This document shows, piece by piece, positions 28,809-57,652 of a stretch of DNA of 64,000 bases (positions are counted from its first letter, which is position 1; each line of letters starts with the position of its first letter). The position numbers and the translations under genes are program-made. Origin of the DNA: a virus (taxonomy: Duplodnaviria; Heunggongvirae; Uroviricota; Caudoviricetes); the IMG/VR virus record IMGVR_UViG_2861069343_000001. One strand, written 5' to 3'. The notes under the pieces were generated by a model. That model had not been told where the DNA came from. It did not search any database and worked only from the letters and a program-made list of their open reading frames with translations.

Positions 28809-29450
28809 ATGGATAAGAAAATATGCGTTGTTTCGATGAGCGTCGGCAAACCGGCGTCAATGACTGCCGCATGGATCAACAATGAGCTGATAATGGCTGA
28901 GCGGACCAGCTACCCTGAACGCCGCCGCGATATGGAACTCCAGCTGCTGCGCGAATTGCAAGAAAAAGAGGAAAAGGGTTTTATCGTGCTGGTGGAAGAG
29001 GAAAACAGCTTTATTACGGGTCGAGTTGGCCAGCGTGTAAGGTTGCGCGATCCCTTCATGAACGGCAGGCCGGTACTAATTGAAGCAATGCAGATTTACA
29101 AGGAGCTGGAACGCCAGAAAGCGATCAAGTTACCGCGCAAAGAATCCGGCAAATACATCCTCCACCAAAGCATCTTCGATTCCGAACACGACAAAAAAGG
29201 CGATGAATTTTTCAACATCAACTGGAGCGAAATAACGACAGAGCACGTTCTGTCGTTGTTATGCTGCTTCGCAACGGAATATAACAACGTTGCAAGCGCC
29301 GACTACATCAGGGCAATGGCTGGAGAAGTTGAGGCCCGCCAGGAACCATCGTTACTAAGCCCTCTGATTAACATAATTCGCGGAACCCAATGTCTAGCCG
29401 ACAAGCGAGTTCCTCAAGGCTTACTTACCGGCAAAGAAAACTATTTATAA
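28809..29450 (+). CDS. hypothetical protein at mat position
   Basis: ORF 28662..29450; start placed at MDKKICVV; start uncertain. Confidence 0.45.
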   Translation: MDKKICVVSMSVGKPASMTAAWINNELIMAERTSYPERRRDMELQLLRELQEKEEKGFIVLVEEENSFITGRVGQRVRLRDPFMNGRPVLIEAMQIYKELERQKAIKLPRKESGKYILHQSIFDSEHDKKGDEFFNINWSEITTEHVLSLLCCFATEYNNVASADYIRAMAGEVEARQEPSLLSPLINIIRGTQCLADKRVPQGLLTGKENYL

Positions 29451-29540
29451 TTAATTACGTCAGTAGCCAATAGAGATTTTTGTTGTGGAACAAAAATATA
29501 TATTTTACAATCTAGTAACTTTGGGTGGAGGATTATTACA

Positions 29541-30581
29541 ATGATGAATATTAAGCCGCTGAAAATTAGGAACAAGGTCATGAAGCCTCATAAAGCATTA
29601 TTAAACCCTGACCTAACCGCAAGGAATGTACTTACATACAGTCATTGGGATTTTGTCGAACTCTGGTTAAAGCGAAACGAAAAAGATGAGGCTCTTTTTT
29701 ATTGGGAGCAAGCAAAAGTATTTAATCAGGCGGCCAATGGTTTACCCAACCAATCAGCCCCACTTTTGCACTATTATTCATTCATGAATGCAGTAAAGGC
29801 GTTACTTTCATCTCGCAATATAAACTTCAAACAGCATCATGGTGTTGCTAGGGGTGAAAATACAGCCCAAATTGATAACTTATCTGATATAAAAGTAAAA
29901 ATAAAAAATGAGGGTATACTTCCGTCTTTTTCAAAATATATTGACGGCACCTCTCATGAGGGGGTGTACAATATAAAAAACCTTTTTTCTGGATTGCCAT
30001 ATATTCATCGTACATATTGCCTTACTTATGATGTAACTGATGATATATTTATTCCACTGATCGATGCTGAGTTCGTTTTGAATGAGTCAGACAATAGCCT
30101 GTTTTTCACTGCGATTTTATCCAAGGATTTTCGGTTCGACACAGTTTTCGACATTCTACCGCCAGCGTTCGAATTGTTTGAAAGAGAAAAGTACAAAATA
30201 AAATCAGTAGAATCATTACTTGATTTTAATGAAAATCAATCGTCCAACATGCCGCAATTAACTGAATTTCATCAAAAAATAAGAAGAGATCTTTACTATA
30301 TCAATGGCGCAGAGACTCTTTGGTATCTCAAACGTAAAAACAATCAATCTGAGCATACTTCTGTTTCAATATCGCCATTGGTTATAACCCTAGCAGCTAT
30401 GCATCGATTAAGTGAGCTATGTCGGTATGACCCACTTAAGCTAAGACAGTTACTAAATGAAAAAGAAAACTGGATTATTGCTGAATTTATTCAACAATCT
30501 CCGTCACAGTTTATAGATGCAATTTCATCTGAAATTACTGGACACCAATTTCTTATCCCAAACGTAAGGTCTGCTTCTTAA
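29541..30581 (+). CDS. hypothetical protein, gene A of AT-rich two-gene cassette (candidate defence system component)
   Basis: 346 aa, low GC, RBS GGTGGAGGA; R-x6-H (RNINFKQH); no ATPase/helicase/methylase motifs. Confidence 0.7.
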   Translation: MMNIKPLKIRNKVMKPHKALLNPDLTARNVLTYSHWDFVELWLKRNEKDEALFYWEQAKVFNQAANGLPNQSAPLLHYYSFMNAVKALLSSRNINFKQHHGVARGENTAQIDNLSDIKVKIKNEGILPSFSKYIDGTSHEGVYNIKNLFSGLPYIHRTYCLTYDVTDDIFIPLIDAEFVLNESDNSLFFTAILSKDFRFDTVFDILPPAFELFEREKYKIKSVESLLDFNENQSSNMPQLTEFHQKIRRDLYYINGAETLWYLKRKNNQSEHTSVSISPLVITLAAMHRLSELCRYDPLKLRQLLNEKENWIIAEFIQQSPSQFIDAISSEITGHQFLIPNVRSAS

Positions 30582-31090
30582 TGAATATATATATCGCATG
30601 CGCTTTAACTCATGTTCCAAGGGAAATTTTCCATGAGTACAGTAATTGGATTCACAGCCTTGCAAAAGGTCTATCTCAAAATAACAACGTAAAATATGCT
30701 TTGATAAATAGTGACCCAGAATTATCAAAGCGCCCTGAAAGTAACAAATCTAGACTTTGTTACATTTGGGACAGAGATATGGTTGAGAAATCTGATGTAA
30801 TAATTGCAGAATGTAGTTTTCCATCAACAGGGCTAGGAATAGAGTTGCAGATTGCTGAACAGAAGAACATTCCTGTAATCATCTGTTATAAAGATTATGG
30901 GATAAATAAAACTAAAACCATTGAATACGTGAATCCAGATGAGACTACCCATAATCTACAAGTTGGCGAGGGTTTCATTTCTCATATGGTATTAGGACTA
31001 CCAAACATCCTTGATGTCATATTATGTAAAGATATTGATAACACATGCAGGAAGCTAAAAATACTGTTAGATATGATTAACCATAATTAA
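30581..31090 (+). CDS. nucleoside 2-deoxyribosyltransferase/TIR-like (Rossmannoid N-glycosidase-like) protein, gene B of cassette
   Basis: 169 aa; start overlaps gene A stop (TAATG); NIYIACAL ... SDVIIAECSFPSTGLGIELQIAEQKNIPVI pattern. Confidence 0.65.
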   Translation: MNIYIACALTHVPREIFHEYSNWIHSLAKGLSQNNNVKYALINSDPELSKRPESNKSRLCYIWDRDMVEKSDVIIAECSFPSTGLGIELQIAEQKNIPVIICYKDYGINKTKTIEYVNPDETTHNLQVGEGFISHMVLGLPNILDVILCKDIDNTCRKLKILLDMINHN

Positions 31091-31120
31091 AAATTAACAC
31101 CCACTTAAGATGTCTAAACC

Positions 31121-31140
31121 AGCCCGGTATTAACCGGGCT
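31121..31140. terminator. hairpin between convergent cassette and lxc
   Basis: AGCCCGGT-ATTA-ACCGGGCT perfect 8-bp stem. Confidence 0.4.
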
Positions 31141-31148
31141 AGACAAAC

Positions 31149-31397
31149 TTAATCAGCATTCAGGAGCAATGCATTATCTATGATGATTTGCTCCCATTCT
31201 TCGAATGCCCGGTCGCGGACGCCCTGGGGAACGCTGTTAGTTTTGAAATCGACGACCGTACGCCATTTCCCGTCCGGGCGGTACATGCGCAGAGCTTTAC
31301 TTCCCCCTTCCCTGCGCACCTCAACGTTATGCTTATCAGCAAACTCTTGTAATGCTCGTAGCGTCCCATGCTTTACTGTGTAGTATCGCTTTTTCAA
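31149..31397 (-). CDS. lxc: Lxc/Bof C1 co-repressor modulator
   Basis: 82-aa ORF between darB operon end and cassette. Confidence 0.6.
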   Translation of the reverse strand: MKKRYYTVKHGTLRALQEFADKHNVEVRREGGSKALRMYRPDGKWRTVVDFKTNSVPQGVRDRAFEEWEQIIIDNALLLNAD

Positions 31398-43141: not shown

Positions 43142-43936
43142 ATGACAGCACAAAATACTAAAACCATTCAATACCGCCTGCGTAATGGCCAGAGTGTAGA
43201 AGTGACCATCAATAATGATGGTGTACCTGGCGAAAAGGTTTCTATCTCTGATCTGGCTATCGAAAAAACCATCATGTGCCACCTTGGCTTTACTGAAGAA
43301 GTGAGCAAAAAGCATGGTGTAGCTATCTGGCGCACAATGGATACTGGCATGCGCAGATTCATTACTGCTCGTACCCCTGGTATGACCATGATGGACCTCA
43401 TACAGATTGCGCCGCTGTTTGAGTGTGAACCTTTGGATGTATTCAGCAATCCAGCTATCTGCCAGCAGTTATATGGTGAGATGAAACTCGCGGTTACCCC
43501 CATTGTGCTGCATGAAGGATCGCTTGCTGGCGTATGGAAAGTAGAGCGAATTTCAAGCTACATGCCATTCCACATCCATGTCAACGGCGTAATCACAGGT
43601 GAAAATCAACCTGTTTCAGTTACAAAGTCAGACCTCAATCGCGCAATTCTTGAAGCAAGTTGTCGAGTTATCGGCCTGGGCAAACAGTCTTATGTTTCCT
43701 TCCCGGCTGGTCCTGAAGGCCCGGCAGAAATTCTGATTATGGATGCTGATCTGCTCTGGCAAATACAGTTTCTGATTGGCAAAAGCATCATCCGCGCTGA
43801 AGAACTCGATCAGTACATTACCTGCACGATGACGGATGAAGTCAAAAGTGTGGCTATAGCCAATGCCCGGAACCTGTGTCGTGCTGCATTAACAGAACTG
43901 CAAGAAAACACTACGGAAGAAGTGGAAAGCGATTAA
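43142..43936 (+). CDS. hypothetical protein
   Basis: 264-aa ORF followed by terminator. Confidence 0.5.
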   Translation: MTAQNTKTIQYRLRNGQSVEVTINNDGVPGEKVSISDLAIEKTIMCHLGFTEEVSKKHGVAIWRTMDTGMRRFITARTPGMTMMDLIQIAPLFECEPLDVFSNPAICQQLYGEMKLAVTPIVLHEGSLAGVWKVERISSYMPFHIHVNGVITGENQPVSVTKSDLNRAILEASCRVIGLGKQSYVSFPAGPEGPAEILIMDADLLWQIQFLIGKSIIRAEELDQYITCTMTDEVKSVAIANARNLCRAALTELQENTTEEVESD

Positions 43937-43967
43937 AAAAAATCCCGCCGATTGGCGGGATTTCTTC
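43934..43967. terminator. bidirectional rho-independent terminator
   Basis: AAATCCCGCC-GATT-GGCGGGATTT plus TCTTC. Confidence 0.55.
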
Positions 43968-44283
43968 AATATACGATCTGGTCTACATGATCCCCAAAAT
44001 CATCGTCGTCATCGTCGTCGTCCTCATCGCCACCCTCTACTGCTGGCCAATCAACAAACCAGCCAGCGTAAAGATGCAGCGTTCGGAGAACATCACTTGC
44101 GGGAGCATCAAGGGTGTTAACGAATCCCATATAGCTATTGGGATTTGCCCCAGCTATGGCTTCAGCGATCATGTCCTCGGTAATGTCACCGGAGATAATG
44201 CTTAAACGCCCGGAAACTTCTTCATTATCATCAAATTCGATAATGGCATCTCCGCCTAATGGCGCCGCGATTTTAATCTGCAT
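43966..44283 (-). CDS. small acidic protein, last gene of leftward operon
   Basis: 105 aa, poly-Asp C-terminus. Confidence 0.4.
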   Translation of the reverse strand: MQIKIAAPLGGDAIIEFDDNEEVSGRLSIISGDITEDMIAEAIAGANPNSYMGFVNTLDAPASDVLRTLHLYAGWFVDWPAVEGGDEDDDDDDDDFGDHVDQIVY

Positions 44284-47642: not shown

Positions 47643-49889
47643 CTAGCTATTGTTGTACGCCTCATACATCTGCAATCCAGTAGCAGCACCTTGTGTTGTA
47701 TCGGTGAGCGCAGTAACACGCCCTCTGGACGTAATTGTTGGTATCGAAATGTTCGCAGAACCATCAAACTTAACACCGTTGATTGTGCGGGCTGTTTGCA
47801 GTTTCGTAGCGGTTGCAGCATTGCCGGTAGTGCTCTGATTACCTGCTTTATTCACGCCCGGCAGGTCGATATTGGCACTACCATCGAACGACACTCCGCC
47901 GATTGTGCGTGCTGTTTGCAGTTTTGTGGCGGTGGATGCATTACCTGTCAAAGATCCACTAAGAGCCACGGCACTAAGAGACTTAACACTTACATCCTGA
48001 CCCCATCCGGAAACAACAACCTGACTCCACGCTGCCCAGCTTCCATTAACAACAAAGCGAACGTATATACGTTTTGTGTCGTTGCTGATCAGCGTTTGCA
48101 TGTTCGCATAATCCGAAGCAGAAACTTTGCGAGTCGACTCTACACGGAGCAAAAAGTTACCGTTTACGCCGTCAGGCTTGTTGGTGATATTTGCACCACC
48201 TCCAAAGGTTGGACAATAATAATATTTAATTGCCCCGACATCTGAGCTGATGGTCAGGTTGTTAAGATCAACCGTCTGGTCGCCAATTTTTTCCGGCTCG
48301 ATGGCTCCTGCTATCCCGGCACTAAATGTAGCAGCGGCTGAAAACGCTGTCTTACCTTTGAAAGTCTGTTGAGAACTCCAGGTATTAGCTGTGCTCAACA
48401 GGGGGATCTTTTCGCCGCTGGTTCCGATTTCTCTTAAACCAAGGTATTGGATAACAGCCAGTGTGCTTGTTTTAGCCAGGATATCGCGACCGACTGACGT
48501 TAAATCAGTCTGGGAAACAGTGTCTGTACCGGTAAAGTACGGCAATTTATTTGCGCCTGTCGCAAGACCAGCAAGCGCGGTTAAAGTTGCATCCAGAGGC
48601 TGTTTGCCTGCCAGCGCATTTGTCATTGTTGTCGCAAAGTTCGGGTCATTGCCCAGTGCTGCTGCAAGCTCATTCAGGGTATCAAGAGCTTCAGGTGATG
48701 AGCCGACCAATGCAGAGATAGCAGCTCTTACATAAGCGGTCGTAGCAATCTGCGTGTTATTCGTACCCTGTGCAGCGGTAGGCGCAGTAGGTATTCCCGT
48801 TAATGCAGGACTTGCTAAAGGAGCTTTAAGAGCCAGAGCATTGTTGATAGTTGTGCTGAAATTCGGGTCGTTATTGATCGCAGCAGCTATTTCTTTAAGC
48901 GTATCCAGTGTGCCAGGTGCACCGTTGATAAGTGCCGTTATAGCTGCCTTAACAAAGGCTGTATTTGCGATCTGCGTGCTGTTTGTACCTTGCGCTGCCG
49001 TCGGCGCGGTTGGCGTTCCTGTCAGACTCGGGCTTTCTATTGGCGCTTTGGTATCAGCCAGCTCTTTTACAGACTTAACGGCTTTAGGGGTAGCCGCCAT
49101 TGTTTCGCTGTCGCTGTTAGTTGCGCTACTGAGCTGAACTAATCCCTTTTGTGTTGTGCTTGCATCCTGCGCCGTATACTTGCTTTTAGCCAGATCGTAG
49201 GCTTTTTTAACCGCCAGCGAACTTGCAGCGACATCACTTCTGGTACTGGTTACAGAGTCGGAAATTTCAATGCCTATCGCGAGATCGATGCGGTCGGATA
49301 CATCTATCATTTCCTTAGTAATAGCAGATACGCCAGCAGGGATATTCACCGTACAAACAAGCAGTTCCCCATCTCCTAACTGATATGAATCGGTATAGGT
49401 TCTGGCAACAAATTCAGCCGCATGAATATGTGACGCGGTATTAACCTGATAAGAATCTTCTCCAAGGAGGTATCTTCCCTTCAGCACAATTGCATATTTC
49501 TTACCTGCGCTAAGTGCAAGAGAAATATCCTTACGCTGCTGAATAGTTACCTGGTAGAATTCACCAATATTCACTGACGCCGCGCCAGCGGTTTTATCAC
49601 CATCCACTGAGGTGATTAACAGGTTCATCCCACCGCCAGGCTTAGGAAAAAAACCGGCATAAAATCCAGGGTCAACAATTCCCCTGAATTTTCGGTTTAG
49701 CGCGGCTGACAGATATGGTTCGTGGTATTGCACATCAGCCACCAGAGCCAACGACTCGGGTGATGGGTAAGTAACCGATGTGACAACTGTAACGTCATTC
49801 ATCAAGCATATCCTTATGCTGTAGTCGTGTTTATGGCCATAACTGCGGTATATGTTTTGCCCACATACAGCGAGTCTTCCTGGACACAA
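47643..49889 (-). CDS. tail fibre protein (S-like) with internal repeats
   Basis: PTAPTAAQGTN[ST]TQIA repeats; C-terminal NAATATKLQTARTINGVKFDGSANI motif; start likely internal. Confidence 0.7.
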   Translation of the reverse strand: MCPGRLAVCGQNIYRSYGHKHDYSIRICLMNDVTVVTSVTYPSPESLALVADVQYHEPYLSAALNRKFRGIVDPGFYAGFFPKPGGGMNLLITSVDGDKTAGAASVNIGEFYQVTIQQRKDISLALSAGKKYAIVLKGRYLLGEDSYQVNTASHIHAAEFVARTYTDSYQLGDGELLVCTVNIPAGVSAITKEMIDVSDRIDLAIGIEISDSVTSTRSDVAASSLAVKKAYDLAKSKYTAQDASTTQKGLVQLSSATNSDSETMAATPKAVKSVKELADTKAPIESPSLTGTPTAPTAAQGTNSTQIANTAFVKAAITALINGAPGTLDTLKEIAAAINNDPNFSTTINNALALKAPLASPALTGIPTAPTAAQGTNNTQIATTAYVRAAISALVGSSPEALDTLNELAAALGNDPNFATTMTNALAGKQPLDATLTALAGLATGANKLPYFTGTDTVSQTDLTSVGRDILAKTSTLAVIQYLGLREIGTSGEKIPLLSTANTWSSQQTFKGKTAFSAAATFSAGIAGAIEPEKIGDQTVDLNNLTISSDVGAIKYYYCPTFGGGANITNKPDGVNGNFLLRVESTRKVSASDYANMQTLISNDTKRIYVRFVVNGSWAAWSQVVVSGWGQDVSVKSLSAVALSGSLTGNASTATKLQTARTIGGVSFDGSANIDLPGVNKAGNQSTTGNAATATKLQTARTINGVKFDGSANISIPTITSRGRVTALTDTTQGAATGLQMYEAYNNS

Positions 49890-51166: not shown

Positions 51167-52596
51167 TCCTCCTCATACGAAATATTAAAGGTGGAGTTTT
51201 CTGTATCCAGATAAACGAAATCGTAAAAGCCGTTGGACTCATTCCACTCGACAAATTCCAGATAAAAGTCGCGGAAATAACCCAGCGTTTCGATAAATGC
51301 CCAAACGTCTTTTTTCTTGATCAGGATGTACTTGCCGACACCGTTCGGATCAAAGAAATTTGAGTCGCGCCCAAATTTTGTTTCCAGTGCCGACTTCAAC
51401 TCATCAGTCACGTTCTCAATAGTCAGGCTTGCCGATATCCGCCCGGTGATGGTTATCTTAAATGGTAGTTTTCTGACCTCTTTATAAGAGAATTTCTTGT
51501 TCAGTTCATTCGGTACCTTCTTAAAGGCAGTCAGGATCATTTCTTCAAGCTCTGACTGGCTTTTATTTGGATGCCATCCTGAAATAAATATCTTATTGAT
51601 ATTCTGAACATTATAAGCACCATCTAATTTCTCTTGCTGGCCTTCGCCCCATGCCTTTACCCAGGACAGCCCCGGGATGTTACGAACCAGAAAATACGTA
51701 TAGTCCCCGCCCCATACGACCTGATCATCATAGGCAAGGTAATATTGTGCACGGTTACGTGTGATCTCCGTTGTTTCAGCATCGGTACCTGCGGTTATAG
51801 GTGTCGTTGTCTTAACTGAAATCAAATTAGCTAAATTAGCCGCAGAATCGACAGGCGTCAGGTTTTGGCCAGCAACCAGGGTTATATCGCCGTTGGTGCA
51901 CCATACCTTAAGCGTAATTGTCGAACCTTCTGGCGGTATTTGCCCAATTAGCCCATCGCCGAATCGAACCCCCAACTGCTCGGATGGTTTATAAAACTCA
52001 ACGTAGACCTGGCTTTTACTACCGGCTAACCGGAACATAGTGCTGGAAGACCACTGCGTGGTCTTACCATCGGTCGTCACGAATACTTCCAGCTTATAGC
52101 AGACAGCAGTAAGAGCCTTTGATAACACGACTTCCAGAAATTCTTTGGCTGCCGTAACGGTATATGTCACCTCCTGGATTTCCAACTGTGCCACTTCTAC
52201 CGTACCGGTGCCGTCAACCAACCTGCATACATCCATAGTCATGTAAGGGTACTGGTCGTCAGATATTAAAGGCATGTTTTTGGGGATTACCGCTGGGGCA
52301 TCTTCACTTGTGGCGGTGATCTCAATCATCCCCGATGACGGTGTTGGCTTGGTACCAACGTAACTATTCGTTTCTGCCGCTGCCAGGATAGAGGAACGCC
52401 GCGTCGCGGTCGATATAAAGCCTTCAGCCAGCGCCGCATCGGCATACTGAAAGCACCTGTAGACAATCTGGGTAATAAACAATGTCAGCATCGAGACAAA
52501 TTGAGAGCCGACAAACTTCGACCAGAATGAATCTTTCTCGACAAGCTCTTCAAACTCTGCACGAATACTGTCTTTAGTCGGTGTTGTTTTACTCAT
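51163..52596 (-). CDS. baseplate protein (P1 bplA position)
   Basis: 477-aa ORF. Confidence 0.5.
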   Translation of the reverse strand: MSKTTPTKDSIRAEFEELVEKDSFWSKFVGSQFVSMLTLFITQIVYRCFQYADAALAEGFISTATRRSSILAAAETNSYVGTKPTPSSGMIEITATSEDAPAVIPKNMPLISDDQYPYMTMDVCRLVDGTGTVEVAQLEIQEVTYTVTAAKEFLEVVLSKALTAVCYKLEVFVTTDGKTTQWSSSTMFRLAGSKSQVYVEFYKPSEQLGVRFGDGLIGQIPPEGSTITLKVWCTNGDITLVAGQNLTPVDSAANLANLISVKTTTPITAGTDAETTEITRNRAQYYLAYDDQVVWGGDYTYFLVRNIPGLSWVKAWGEGQQEKLDGAYNVQNINKIFISGWHPNKSQSELEEMILTAFKKVPNELNKKFSYKEVRKLPFKITITGRISASLTIENVTDELKSALETKFGRDSNFFDPNGVGKYILIKKKDVWAFIETLGYFRDFYLEFVEWNESNGFYDFVYLDTENSTFNISYEEE

Positions 52597-52952
52597 AGCA
52601 CCACGTCCTGTGTGATAGTTATATCCCTGATACGAATGGATATTTTCAACTTATCAAAAGCATCTCCCTCGGCTACTGACAAGCCAGAAATCGGTATGTC
52701 AGGTAAATCTACCGTCAGTTTTTGCAACAGCATTGCCTCAACCGCAATTTGAACATGCGACAAGTTGGTCGGTTCGTGTTTAAACTGCGGTAAAACATTG
52801 CCCCATGACGGATCTCCGTATACCTCACCCTGATAAGTGTTTAGCCACTCATATAAACGAGCGCCCCAGGCCTCCTCCTGGGACTCATACGTTTTTACGC
52901 CGGATAACTCCAGCGTCAGCAAAGGATCAATTTCGTTATTGTTGGCCATCAA
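52593..52952 (-). CDS. baseplate-associated small protein
   Basis: 119-aa ORF coupled between sit and the baseplate gene. Confidence 0.4.
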   Translation of the reverse strand: MMANNNEIDPLLTLELSGVKTYESQEEAWGARLYEWLNTYQGEVYGDPSWGNVLPQFKHEPTNLSHVQIAVEAMLLQKLTVDLPDIPISGLSVAEGDAFDKLKISIRIRDITITQDVVL

Positions 52953-55900
52953 TCAACTCTCGCGTAGTCATTCATCAACGGATCATCAATTGACAGTGGT
53001 ACCGTGCGCATAACGCCCGGCTGAGGCGTGCTGACCTTTACGACAGTTCCCTGGCCTTTCGCCGAGTCTTTGGTGTGCTCTTCAATCCTGGCAAGCAATG
53101 AGGTCATCTGCGCAAACAGCCGCTTCGTTTCACCATCAAGTGAAACGGTATTATCAGCCAACTGCATTGTCGGCTTGGCACCGGAACCGCCAAGGTCACT
53201 AATAACCTGCCCGTCTATCTGCATACGACCGGTTGGTTGCTGCAAATCGTTGGCGGCAGTCGTCACCTTGGACGTGGAGGCTGGTTCAGTCGCATTATTT
53301 TTCCGCATCCCCGGCGAGTTGCGGAGTTTATCGAATAGTCCATCAATCCCCATTTGTGCGCCGAGTTGGTCAAAGTAACTTGAGTTGCTGGCCACCGGAC
53401 GCACCTCTTCAACTGGCATCGGAGTATCAACATACACATTGCCAGCTGCTGTTGCGGTCCCCTTCCCTCGTGCACGTTCTTCGAGCGTTCCCTGAACGAC
53501 TTCCCGACGCATACCCCGGCCATTCATGAATTTGTTGACCAGATCGTTAACGCCAACAGCATTGCCGATTTTGTCTACCAGACCGCCTTTCTCAAACGGG
53601 CTATCACCAGGGGTAAACGCCAGGCCAGTAGACTGATCGATAACAGCGTTATCAGGCAGTGGTCCCCTCACTCCATATTGCGCCCCACCCTGTGCTCCTG
53701 CTCCAGGTGTATAGATTTCACCACCTAAATAGCGAGCACGATGAGTATTGACCTTGATCGCGTACTCACGGTTTTCTTTCGATAAGTCACCTGTGCCTTT
53801 TTTCCACTTATTGATAGTGCCAAACCCAGCGTTATATGCAGTGATGGCCTCGTTTAAGTCTCCATTGGCTTGCTTCAGATACTTGCTCATGAGAAGAGCC
53901 GCAGCTTCTGCCGATTTCACAGGATCAAACGATTCACCTTCAGCTAAGCCAGTCTCTTCACGAGCAATCCCCGTGAACTGAAACATTCCCAGAGCACCGG
54001 TTTGGGATTTTGCATACGGATTACCACCAGATTCAGTTGCAGCAATCGCGTAAAGAGTACCTTCAGGAAGGCCATATTTATTCTCTAGTTCAGCAAAATA
54101 CGGAGCCAACTTATCGAGATTTGCCTTACCTTCAGCGCCAAGACTTCCGACTTTTACATACAAGTTGCCATTATTGTAGGTATCCGCAGCTTTCTGAATG
54201 TCATTCCTGGTGCCAGTGGTATTAAGCGAGGATGATGACGAGCTATTTTGACCAATAGCTTTATCAATTTTCTGCAACGCGCTATTGCCCGTTTCTACGG
54301 CATTTGCATTGATAATCTGATTGGCAGTTTGTTTAACTGTTTTATTGCTATCTTTCGCTGTGTCCAGTGCCGCATTTATCACGCGGGTAGCAATATTAGT
54401 CTGTTTGGCATCGGATTCAGTTTTAGAATCAGATGTCTCCTGGTGGCTATTAACCGGAGCTTTTAACTCTGGAGCGATTTCTTTCGCATTAGCCTCGCTA
54501 TTAACCGGAGCTTTTAACTCTGGAGTGATTTCTTTCGCATTAGCCTCGCCGATCGGATTGGGTATTTTTGATACAATCATTGCCGCAGGGGTATTTTTAA
54601 CGGCATCAACCGCTGCATCTAATGCTTTACCAGGTAAATTTTTAACCCCATCCCAAATATTACCAGCCGCCTCTTTAATGTGTTTCCCTGGGTTCTTAAT
54701 GAAATCAATTGCACTATCAATTGCATCACTGAAAACCTGTTTCAGGTTATCAACAGTAAAGAAGTCTTTGATGGCATCCAGCTTTTCAAGCAGCTTATTA
54801 GATGTATCGCTAAACCATGCTGAAACAGCATCACCAATCTTTGCTGTGTAATCTTCGAACTTGGTAGAAATGGTGTCGCCAAGGTTAGAAATATATGTTT
54901 CTAAGTTGGTAATCCCACTATCAATGGCCTGGGCAATACTTTCCGTCGAAAATGATTGCAACATATTGCCGATATCCTCAAATCCAAGTGATTTGAGAAC
55001 CTCACCAATGGCGCTGCTAATACCAGATACCAGTCCCCCCATATCAAGAACATTGGCTAACGTATAAGCGGCTTTTTGCTGGAATGATGGATCTTGTCCT
55101 GATTTAAGCCCAAACGCTCGACGTTGCGCTTCTGTATCATTCCAACCGGTTACCGCATCATAAATACCTCCAGCCACTGTGCCGACTAAGGGAATTGCGC
55201 GTAACGCCCCTTTACCAACTGCCTTTAATCCAAGTTTACCTGCTGCCCGGGCAGCCAAATCTCCACCTTCATGGGCGATAGTCTTCTTGCCACCACCGCG
55301 TAGCATTCCTACAAGTTTCTTTGCCCCCAGAGCGCCAAAAGCGAGTGCTCCAGCTTTTTTCAGCATGCCACGCCCCATTAACAACGACGCGACGCCACCG
55401 GCCCCCTTCCCTAACAGGCTAAATAGTTTGGACAGCAAGCCGCCCTTCTTTTTCCCGGTGTTTTTGGCTATCTGATCAAGGGCGCTGAGAATCTTGTCAT
55501 TGCCCTCTTTAATTTCGCTGGTCTGCTCCTGAAGTTCCTGAACTGTCCGTTTTTGGGTGTTAACCTGAACGACATCGGCACTATTTTGCGATTTACGCCT
55601 AAAAAAACCTTTTCTACGGCTGTTATCGTCATTGCCACGAATCACATCGGCAATAGACTTTCTGGCACCATTAAGCGATCCACCAACTTCTTTTGATATC
55701 CCGCCAAGCTCCTTCCCTGCTGCCCACAATGGACCAGCAACGGCATAACCTAACGCATCAACGGCACGAGTCTCTGAAGGGTTACCTATGCCTTCAGCTA
55801 CTTTTGACAGTTTTTTTAATAAACCTGATTCAGCATTTAGACGCTCATCATCCTCTTTGCGCCTGGCCTTTTCAGCACGTTCAGCACGGGCATCTTCCGT

Positions 55901-56689
55901 TGCGGCCTTACTCCCTAACTTTCCAATAAAACGACCACGCGCATCGCGTTGGTTTTGGCTTTTTTGCGCACCGCCTTTTTGATCGAACATTTCGCGAGCG
56001 TGTTCGGCTGCTTCGGTCCGTTGTGCCTTTATATCCTCTGGTATAGCCTTCCTGCGTCGTTTTTTACCCTTTGGTGTAGTTGATTTGGCCTGCTGTTCCT
56101 GTTGAGCAATGCCCTCCTGAACTACACGAGAAACGTCCCCTAAATTAAGCCGTTTCATTGCGTCAACAATAGGGTCTACTGATGGCACATTGGCCACAAA
56201 GTCTGGCCGGGAATTTTCGATTGTTCGATTTAATGCCGACACACTGCGAGATACTGGGTCAACCGTTGCAACGCGTTCCCCTTTCAAATCACGAGCGAGT
56301 TTGACCGTTTCTAACCGCTGTGCTTTAACATCCTCTGTTATTGCCTCTCTTCGTCTATTTGGGGGATTGTGCGCTGTTGGTGCAGCCTGCTGTTCACGGT
56401 TAGTGACTTTGTCCTCCCGTATACGAGAAACGTCCCCTAAATTAAGCCGTTTTATTGCGTCAACAATAGGGTCCACTGATGGCGCATTGGTCACAAAGTC
56501 AGGACGTGAATTTTCGATTGTGCGATTTAATGCCGACACACTGCGAGATACTGGGTCAACAGTTGCAACTCGTTCCCCTTTCAAATCTTCAACAGCTTCC
56601 CGAATACCTGCAAGCTCTTCCAGCTCTTTCGCGCTGGCGGTTTCAACTGTCCTTATAATATCGTCAATATTGGCGTTTTTTCTTTCCAT
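52949..56689 (-). CDS. sit: Sit-like injection transglycosylase / tape-measure protein
   Basis: 1246 aa; Gly/Ala/Lys-rich central region; lytic transglycosylase motif LYAIAATESGGNPYAKSQTGALGMFQF. Confidence 0.8.
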   Translation of the reverse strand: MERKNANIDDIIRTVETASAKELEELAGIREAVEDLKGERVATVDPVSRSVSALNRTIENSRPDFVTNAPSVDPIVDAIKRLNLGDVSRIREDKVTNREQQAAPTAHNPPNRRREAITEDVKAQRLETVKLARDLKGERVATVDPVSRSVSALNRTIENSRPDFVANVPSVDPIVDAMKRLNLGDVSRVVQEGIAQQEQQAKSTTPKGKKRRRKAIPEDIKAQRTEAAEHAREMFDQKGGAQKSQNQRDARGRFIGKLGSKAATEDARAERAEKARRKEDDERLNAESGLLKKLSKVAEGIGNPSETRAVDALGYAVAGPLWAAGKELGGISKEVGGSLNGARKSIADVIRGNDDNSRRKGFFRRKSQNSADVVQVNTQKRTVQELQEQTSEIKEGNDKILSALDQIAKNTGKKKGGLLSKLFSLLGKGAGGVASLLMGRGMLKKAGALAFGALGAKKLVGMLRGGGKKTIAHEGGDLAARAAGKLGLKAVGKGALRAIPLVGTVAGGIYDAVTGWNDTEAQRRAFGLKSGQDPSFQQKAAYTLANVLDMGGLVSGISSAIGEVLKSLGFEDIGNMLQSFSTESIAQAIDSGITNLETYISNLGDTISTKFEDYTAKIGDAVSAWFSDTSNKLLEKLDAIKDFFTVDNLKQVFSDAIDSAIDFIKNPGKHIKEAAGNIWDGVKNLPGKALDAAVDAVKNTPAAMIVSKIPNPIGEANAKEITPELKAPVNSEANAKEIAPELKAPVNSHQETSDSKTESDAKQTNIATRVINAALDTAKDSNKTVKQTANQIINANAVETGNSALQKIDKAIGQNSSSSSSLNTTGTRNDIQKAADTYNNGNLYVKVGSLGAEGKANLDKLAPYFAELENKYGLPEGTLYAIAATESGGNPYAKSQTGALGMFQFTGIAREETGLAEGESFDPVKSAEAAALLMSKYLKQANGDLNEAITAYNAGFGTINKWKKGTGDLSKENREYAIKVNTHRARYLGGEIYTPGAGAQGGAQYGVRGPLPDNAVIDQSTGLAFTPGDSPFEKGGLVDKIGNAVGVNDLVNKFMNGRGMRREVVQGTLEERARGKGTATAAGNVYVDTPMPVEEVRPVASNSSYFDQLGAQMGIDGLFDKLRNSPGMRKNNATEPASTSKVTTAANDLQQPTGRMQIDGQVISDLGGSGAKPTMQLADNTVSLDGETKRLFAQMTSLLARIEEHTKDSAKGQGTVVKVSTPQPGVMRTVPLSIDDPLMNDYARVD
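54449..54550. repeat. 51-bp tandem direct repeat x2 inside sit
   Basis: ATTAACCGGAGCTTTTAACTCTGGAG[C/T]GATTTCTTTCGCATTAGCCTCGC repeated. Confidence 0.8.
56120..56590. repeat. imperfect direct repeat of about 170 bp, two copies 297 bp apart, inside sit
   Basis: ACGAGAAACGTCCCCTAAATTAAGCCGTTT...CCCTTTCAAATC at 56126 and 56423; protein repeat KGERVATVDPVSRSVSALNRTIENSRPDFV. Confidence 0.75.
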
Positions 56690-56770: not shown

Positions 56771-57652
56771 TCAGCGTCCTGAATCGGTATACCCCCATAC
56801 AAAACCAGGTTGGACACTAAGGTCTGATAGCTTTTCAATCCCCACCTGTGGAATGAAGTCGGTAGCCCGAAAGGGCACCCACAGACGGGTATATGCACCC
56901 TCTGTGGACTCCTTTTTATCCTGATTTGGGCATTTATGCGGCGGGAGACGAAGACGCATTTCACCTTTATCGATGTAGCACGGTAAACCATGCTCGAGCT
57001 TTTCATGAGCCAGTCGGATGTGTGCCGCCAGCTTCATAAATTCAGTATCAATGGCCATCCGTTTAATCGTTTCATAACGACGCTCAGCCTGATCTTCACG
57101 AGTACCGCTAACATCGTTATAAAGCTCACACTGATAAGCGAATTCCCAAAAACGCAAATCAACGATCGCTTCTTTGAATTCCGCGTCGTCTTCAGGTGGC
57201 AATGCTGCACGGCGCATCTCCAGCATTTCCATTGCCCAACCATCAAGCGGCACGATACGCCATTGATAAGGTACTCCCTCTACAGACACCTCAATATCGT
57301 CAATGAAAGGTTCCACTTCCAGGACCTGGATATCTTCAGCCAGAGCATTCATATCGCAATCGTAATAATGCTCTTTACCGCAATGTTTACAGGTGTAGGT
57401 GAATGTCTCGACCGGTGTTTCACGGGAGCCGGTAAATATCCACCATAACGCGGTAATCCGGTCCTGCGCCGTCCATGTCAGGGGATCATGTTTCGCGGGT
57501 TCAGCCAGCAAGGCTTTTAAATACGCCGTTGTCTGTTGTTCTTGTTCCTCCGGTGTTATCGAGTTGAAACGCATCGCATCAGCAATATTTGGCTGACGGA
57601 ACTGGATCAATTCAGTTGGCCGCGATGGTAGCGGGAAAAGAGGTAAAAGCAT
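56771..57652 (-). CDS. tail morphogenesis protein (P1 pmgB position)
   Basis: 293-aa ORF. Confidence 0.45.
   Translation of the reverse strand: MLLPLFPLPSRPTELIQFRQPNIADAMRFNSITPEEQEQQTTAYLKALLAEPAKHDPLTWTAQDRITALWWIFTGSRETPVETFTYTCKHCGKEHYYDCDMNALAEDIQVLEVEPFIDDIEVSVEGVPYQWRIVPLDGWAMEMLEMRRAALPPEDDAEFKEAIVDLRFWEFAYQCELYNDVSGTREDQAERRYETIKRMAIDTEFMKLAAHIRLAHEKLEHGLPCYIDKGEMRLRLPPHKCPNQDKKESTEGAYTRLWVPFRATDFIPQVGIEKLSDLSVQPGFVWGYTDSGR

Follow-up and report, generated by a model that had tools for sequence, protein, structure and literature searches.

Natural length alleles of sit, the putative tape-measure gene of P1-like phage-plasmids, differ by in-frame repeats

The IMG/VR virus record IMGVR_UViG_2861069343_000001 (Caudoviricetes) was analyzed as a stretch of 64,000 nucleotides, referred to here as the window. 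It contains a P1-like element with a long allele of sit, a gene for a putative tape-measure protein that also has a lytic transglycosylase domain. The sit open reading frame (ORF) has an ATG start and no internal stops in the translated ORF list. The product of 1246 amino acids (aa) is 96% identical to P1 Sit (YP_006507.1, 1140 aa) and 98% identical to the Sit proteins of P7 and JL22 (1130 aa). It is the same protein as WP_089438725.1, which is carried in NZ_CP029103.1 and NZ_CP076528.1. The gene keeps the P1 operon position (pmgC-tub-pmgB-sit-pmgA-bplA); the order tub-pmgB-sit-pmgA-bplA is common to P1 and the window, with pmgB upstream and pmgA and bplA downstream of sit, and the two are collinear across tens of kilobases. 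Judged by this identity and the kept neighborhood, the gene is a member of the P1 Sit orthologue group. The allele contains two separate in-frame repeats. It represents a natural polymorphism in the length of a known gene, one that is common and arises by known mechanisms. The features of the locus are listed in Table 1.

The first repeat is near the N-terminus. A repeat search returned a direct repeat of 212 nt with 86% identity, whose copies (56079-56290 and 56376-56587) start 297 nt apart. A base-by-base scan of identity at period 297 indicates that a complete 297-bp unit, encoding 99 aa, is duplicated head to tail and in frame across 55994-56587. The two copies are 93.5% identical over their 5' 168 nt and 61% identical over their 3' 129 nt. 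Copy 2 is orthologous to the lone unit of P1 and P7, and its 3' half is 94.6% identical to P1. Copy 1 has a conserved 5' half (56420-56587) and a strongly diverged 3' half (56291-56419) which is confined to duplicated alleles. The Sit of phage phi456 carries this diverged half at 99% identity. Some single-unit alleles at the IMG/VR sit loci are of the copy-2 type; no single-unit allele that could be the donor of the diverged half was found among the 73 IMG/VR alleles and the homologues listed. This half may stem from an ancient duplication in which gene conversion kept the 5' half alike, or it may have been imported from an unsampled relative.

Two other N-terminal arrangements were encountered. 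The IMG/VR locus IMGVR_UViG_2778261179_000002 has a single-unit allele in which a copy-1-type 5' half (FVTNAPSVDPIVDAIKRL) is joined to a JL22-type 3' half. This sequence is consistent with a duplication that collapsed by recombination between the conserved halves, or with an inter-allele recombinant. A triplicated 99-aa unit was suspected in NZ_CP029117.1 and rejected. That record has a 3696-bp sit gene containing two units; the other match is at a different place in the record, which is linear and over-long.

The second repeat is a 51-bp tandem array, for which Tandem Repeats Finder gives period 51, 2.0 copies and 98% matches. The copies agree at 50 of 51 positions and are in frame. It is the sole tandem repeat scoring at least 80 in the window. 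The encoded 17-aa unit is present in 1, 2, 3, 4 or 5 copies among the fetched loci and database proteins, giving proteins of up to 1307 aa. Other alleles in this range are those of NZ_AP027786.1 (1147 aa, with two 17-aa units and a single N-terminal unit) and CP063718.1 (1280 aa). T/A variants of the unit occur in 18 distinct arrangements among otherwise near-identical alleles. Since these variants stand in many differing orders, the array must have gone through repeated expansion and contraction events. On its head-to-tail identical units and its copy-number variation among near-identical alleles, the 51-bp repeat is a coding minisatellite, or variable number tandem repeat (VNTR). Neither repeat in sit can be attributed to chance, given near-perfect identity at such length.

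Both repeats were anticipated by the original prediction, which was made from the sequence of the window. Its two in-frame repeats were recovered, with lengths that are multiples of 3. It had placed the 51-bp repeat at 54449-54550, a shift of 1-3 nt that is within phase ambiguity, and the peptides it quoted are those found at aa 715-748. Its imperfect repeat of roughly 170 bp at a spacing of 297 bp corresponds to the conserved 5' part of the 297-bp unit. The gene was also correctly named as the P1 tape-measure and transglycosylase gene, as the identity, the neighbors and the Pfam match agree, and the expected excess of about 100 aa over P1 Sit is +106 aa.

Sit proteins of P1, P7, JL22, SJ46 and phi456 were aligned with that of the window. 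In P1, P7, JL22 and SJ46 the N-terminal unit and the 17-aa unit are both single, and the 17-aa region of SJ46 is diverged. Like the window allele, phi456 has the N-terminal duplication, and the 17-aa duplication is absent from all five. The prediction had asked whether reference P1 sit holds the same repeats; P1 and P7 have neither. The length arithmetic is exact, 1140 + 99 + 17 - 10 = 1246, so that the window protein exceeds P1 Sit by 106 aa and P7 Sit by 116 aa. The 10 aa are accounted for by one more site of length variation in sit, a loop between motifs I and II of the SLT domain at approximately 53995-54006 of the window (aa ~895/896). The loop reads TLTRSPNGKL in P1 and either TLTRSPNGKL or PLTRSPDGKL overall. 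P1 carries the loop, as do many plasmids, and P7 and the window lack it; recombination between this site and the two other sites of length variation is free. The catalytic motifs E-S (ATESGG), GMFQ (GALGMFQF) and AYNAG (AYNAGFG) are readable in the translation. By its profile match and these motifs, the window Sit has a family 1 lytic transglycosylase (SLT) domain. The PDB holds no structure of Sit among its matches, only distant MltC-like SLT domains.

Table 1. Features of the sit locus, with positions in the window
Feature	Position	Strand	Description and basis
sit, long allele	52949..56689	(-)	1246-aa putative tape-measure protein with C-proximal lytic transglycosylase domain; ORF list
N-terminal 99-aa unit, copy 1	56291..56587	(-)	aa 35-133, gene nt 103-399; period-297 identity scan
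N-terminal 99-aa unit, copy 2	55994..56290	(-)	aa 134-232, gene nt 400-696; identity matrix, alignment
Gly-rich/hydrophobic conserved core	54830..55456	(-)	aa ~412-620; best-stretch positions of distant matches; composition
51-bp minisatellite, 2 copies	54446..54549	(-)	aa 715-731 EANAKEITPELKAPVNS, aa 732-748 EANAKEIAPELKAPVNS; Tandem Repeats Finder
SLT lytic transglycosylase domain	53771..54100	(-)	aa 864-973; PF01464 E=1e-26; MltC-like PDB matches
pmgB	56771..57652	(-)	293 aa, proposed tape-measure chaperone; PHROG 1854 E=1e-154; P1 synteny; role proposed in PMC9024508
pmgA	52593..52952	(-)	119 aa, baseplate wedge protein; overlaps sit stop; role from PMC9024508, PMC12810830

The repeats are not special to this element, as the frequency of the larger one shows. 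A 135-bp probe was taken from the diverged copy-1 segment, which is specific for the 99-aa duplication. It detects the duplication in 136 of 492 sit-bearing PLSDB plasmids and in 197 of 461 sit-bearing RefSeq complete E. coli genomes, and two N-terminal units are present in 18 of 73 IMG/VR loci. The N-terminal region at these 73 loci falls into size classes of 149 aa (n=54), 248 aa (n=18) and a 145-aa variant (n=1). A 52-nt probe that matches only the unit-unit junction of the 51-bp array was found in 36 of the 492 PLSDB records and in 67 of the 461 RefSeq genomes, and at least two 17-aa units are present in 4 of the 73 full-length IMG/VR ORFs, whose total lengths are 1044-1263 aa. Across the three collections, the 99-aa duplication is therefore carried by 25-43% of P1-like elements and at least two 17-aa units by 5-15%. 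A description of this polymorphism was not found in the literature searched, of which the coverage was incomplete, so its absence is unproven.

These frequencies also bear on whether the repeats are real. Short reads can mis-assemble tandem repeats, and a repeat falsely doubled by sequencing or assembly was considered. Seven complete plasmids that are independent of one another carry the identical 3741-bp allele (the sources, in different countries, include a dog, human urine and a human rectal swab), and near-identical 3741-bp alleles are present in many further plasmids. The array junction recurs in the PLSDB and RefSeq records counted above, within an ordered series of 1-5 copies. The array of 51 bp x 2 is shorter than one read, and the many differences between the two 297-bp copies preclude an error of collapse or expansion. 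The chance of an artefact is thus negligible, and recurrence in independent complete plasmids rules it out as the source of the sit repeats.

The long allele was produced by two independent in-frame tandem duplications of differing age, which the gene tolerates. In the older event the 297-bp unit was duplicated; the 5' halves stayed about 94% alike, and in the extra copy the 3' half fell to 61% identity. The 51-bp minisatellite expands and contracts by replication slippage or unequal recombination. The original prediction had proposed slippage, and the occurrence of 1-5 copies of the unit in near-identical alleles strongly supports an origin by slippage or by unequal recombination. The array behaves like other coding VNTRs attributed to slipped strands, in that a head-to-tail unit with a length that is a multiple of 3 varies in copy number among near-identical alleles. 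It differs from typical VNTRs in its small range (1-5), in the predominance of one copy, and in that no high-frequency switching or phase-variable function is evidenced.

Control of the length of the tail by a ruler protein is textbook knowledge, demonstrated mainly in engineered mutants of phages with non-contractile tails. The tail of P1 is among the longest contractile ones. The sit gene lies between the tail tube and chaperone genes and the baseplate genes, as expected for a tape-measure gene. P1 Sit is a virion protein by mass spectrometry, has a suitable size of 1140 aa and adjoins a putative chaperone in the order pmgB-sit-pmgA (PMC9024508). Cryo-electron microscopy (cryo-EM) work on P1 names Sit as the tape-measure protein, although it is unresolved there (PMC12810830), and CRISPR interference indicates that sit is essential in P1 (PMC10695390). 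The P1 tail has 53 tube/sheath rings with a 40-Å rise, a 210-nm sheath and a total length of 245 nm by cryo-EM (PMC10304247). Precedents for the ruler are the deletions and duplications of lambda H and the removal of 114 aa from the TM4 tape measure, which shortened the tail by 20 nm (PMC1796659).

If Sit is threaded in the tail tube as a length ruler, the 116 non-globular residues that the window allele has beyond a P7-type protein would allow more rings to be added before termination. The tube and sheath would then polymerize about 4-5 extra 40-Å rings, for a total of about 57-58 instead of 53 and a gain of 16 to 22 nm. At the 1.5 Å per residue of an alpha-helix the gain would be 17 nm, or about 4 extra rings. 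With P1's own ratio of 1.86 Å per residue it would be 22 nm, or about 5 extra rings, and with the 1.75 Å per residue derived from TM4 it would be about 20 nm, also about 5 extra rings. A phage with the 99-aa duplication is viable, as phi456 (Sit WNL49372.1, 1231 aa, with the N-terminal duplication) yields plaques and myovirus particles according to the phi456 paper. By analogy with the ruler rule, it is rather likely that the long allele lengthens the tail in rough proportion.

Several points weigh against this expectation. Searches of Pfam and PHROGs gave no match of Sit to a tape-measure profile: the sole Pfam domain found is SLT (PF01464), and the best PHROG matches are annotated as 'unknown function', 'tail injection transglycosylase' and 'lytic tail protein'. 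Therefore, the tape-measure assignment depends on gene position and literature. A published tail length was sought for a phage with the long allele, and the phi456 paper gives morphology only. The 51-bp junction probe matched no deposited phage genome. Neither 17 aa nor 99 aa equals a whole number of rings. The P1 ratio of 2120 Å to 1140 aa is 1.86 Å per residue, which exceeds the 1.5 Å of an alpha-helix and so does not fit a purely helical ruler. If wholly helical, the 1140 aa would reach no further than 171 nm, and the P1 ruler thus falls short of what the simple rule requires. A previous study fitted about 750 helical residues to a "120 nm" tail (PMC9024508), in contrast to the 210-nm sheath and 245-nm tail from cryo-EM (PMC10304247). 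Finally, both repeats are in proline-containing stretches that are likely non-helical by the model described below, and they may be linkers rather than parts of the ruler.

The state of the window element counts on the same side. Compared with NZ_CP029103.1, window positions 39939-62020 are 100% identical except for 6,988 bp that are absent from the window at the junction 47644/47645. The absent stretch includes the distal tail-fibre region (the distal part of S), a glycine-rich ORF, the holin genes lydC and lydA, and lydB, hdf and darA. The junction has a 2-nt overlap and creates a fused ORF of 748 aa at 47643-49889 (-). Because tail-fibre and lysis genes are deleted, the element probably makes no infectious particles, and from its sequence it is probably a defective prophage-plasmid. 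The effect of sit length is thus probably moot for the window element itself, and intact carriers exist. NZ_CP076528.1 (82.9 kb), which encodes the same Sit protein, has a deletion different from that of the window.

The linker alternative holds that the 99-aa module, as an N-terminal tail, and the 17-aa unit are outside the measuring part of Sit, so that the tail stays at 53 rings. Both would be flexible and non-helical. The 17-aa unit would then be a hinge that joins the helical body to the transglycosylase domain, with duplications tolerated in unconstrained sequence. Each 99-aa unit contains 6 prolines and each 17-aa unit 2, which favors this reading. When aa 1-860 were searched against 1.84 billion representative proteins, 162 matches were obtained, and only the core at aa ~410-620 is conserved in distant relatives; the repeat segments are not. 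The closest of these distant relatives is a protein of 1081 aa with 52% identity, in which a single N-terminal unit can barely be made out and the 17-aa unit is missing. An AlphaFold model was computed from the single sequence of aa 1-1000 without an alignment; the available Sit alignments are all >90% identical. With a mean pLDDT of 41.9 it was used as a rough map of helix and coil, and at this low confidence it assigns aa 35-218 and 707-759 to coil, and aa 219-706 and 760-839 to helix. That so many length alleles co-exist suggests that selection on exact length is weak, which also favors the linker alternative. However, in-frame changes in lambda H, TP901-1 and TM4 altered the tail approximately in proportion, even where a non-helical motif was removed (TM4 mt3). 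Anything that fills the lumen of the tube takes up axial space, and the 1.86 Å per residue of P1 implies that extended non-helical parts add to the measured length. Length-neutral linkers are a tentative possibility on this balance, and proportional lengthening of the tail is the preferred reading.

Another explanation is that the repeats are adaptive for reasons independent of tail length. They could alter the ejected Sit in the cell envelope, through the reach of the SLT domain or a periplasm-spanning conduit, or aid escape from host or prophage systems that recognize the tape-measure protein, with the minisatellite as a generator of diversity. Tape-measure proteins are ejected and are thought to form a trans-envelope conduit (PMC9022992; PMC12810830). 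The 17-aa array is directly upstream of the lytic domain, and recurrent expansions with differing unit order would fit such a role. The unit sequence itself is almost invariant, however, with copy number alone varying, and a single copy is kept in 85-95% of elements. This explanation is very unlikely. A further reading is that the sit repeats act as a natural, heritable dial for tail length, in which alleles of about 1044-1307 aa would give discrete lengths of about 50-60 rings, the minisatellite would be a fine adjuster that mutates fast, and differences in host envelope (capsule or O-antigen depth) would keep the alleles. This proposal is also unlikely.

The long allele resembles and differs from known systems as follows. 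The Sit proteins of P1 and P7 are orthologues of the window protein with the same operon position, an SLT domain and a conserved core; the window has a second 99-aa and a second 17-aa unit, and lacks the 10-aa SLT loop of P1. The 99-aa N-terminal duplication with a diverged 3' half in copy 1 is shared by phi456 and many IncY P1-like plasmids. Unlike the window, phi456 has a diverged, SJ46-like variant in the 17-aa region, without the EANAKEITPELKAPVNS repeat. The length mutants of lambda gpH, TP901-1 Tmp and TM4 gp17 are similar to the sit alleles in that a long tail-lumen protein has an in-frame internal deletion or duplication, and the tape measures of TM4 and T5 also have a muralytic motif or domain. 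Those of lambda, TP901-1 and TM4 are engineered or selected mutants with non-contractile tails and measured changes, whereas sit is a natural allelic series, known from its sequences, in a contractile-tailed phage-plasmid.

Some additional observations concern other Sit sequences and the remainder of the window. One database Sit protein (P0048, 1277 aa) has the AIDS tetrapeptide three times in tandem instead of the usual two, and another (P0080, 1224 aa) has a 5-aa deletion within the Gly-rich core. In phage vB_EcoM-673R5 (ON470615.2), sit is annotated as five short coding sequences, though the gene is essential in P1; this suggests frameshifts from sequencing errors or a pseudogene. A 1009-aa database protein (P0123) matches Sit aa 117-364 over its first ~245 residues (88% identical), and its remainder is unrelated. 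This chimera may come from a rearrangement or misassembly in some P1-like contig. In the window, a segment of ~1.7 kb at 29450-31149 replaces the EcoPI res/mod genes and IS5 of P1 (P1 nt 3468-9750), and megablast found no similarity between it and the first 48 kb of P1. The IS1 of P1 is absent at 43936-43968 of the window.

The series of sit length alleles is an ordinary polymorphism. The reference P1 sit allele is only one of two major forms, and sit length is unsuitable as a marker of assembly error. The natural alleles differ by clean steps of 17 aa and 99 aa in near-identical genomes, which makes them a convenient test of Sit length against tail length. If the repeats do act as a tail-length dial, the allele series would show how a protein of 1140 aa measures a tube of 212 nm.

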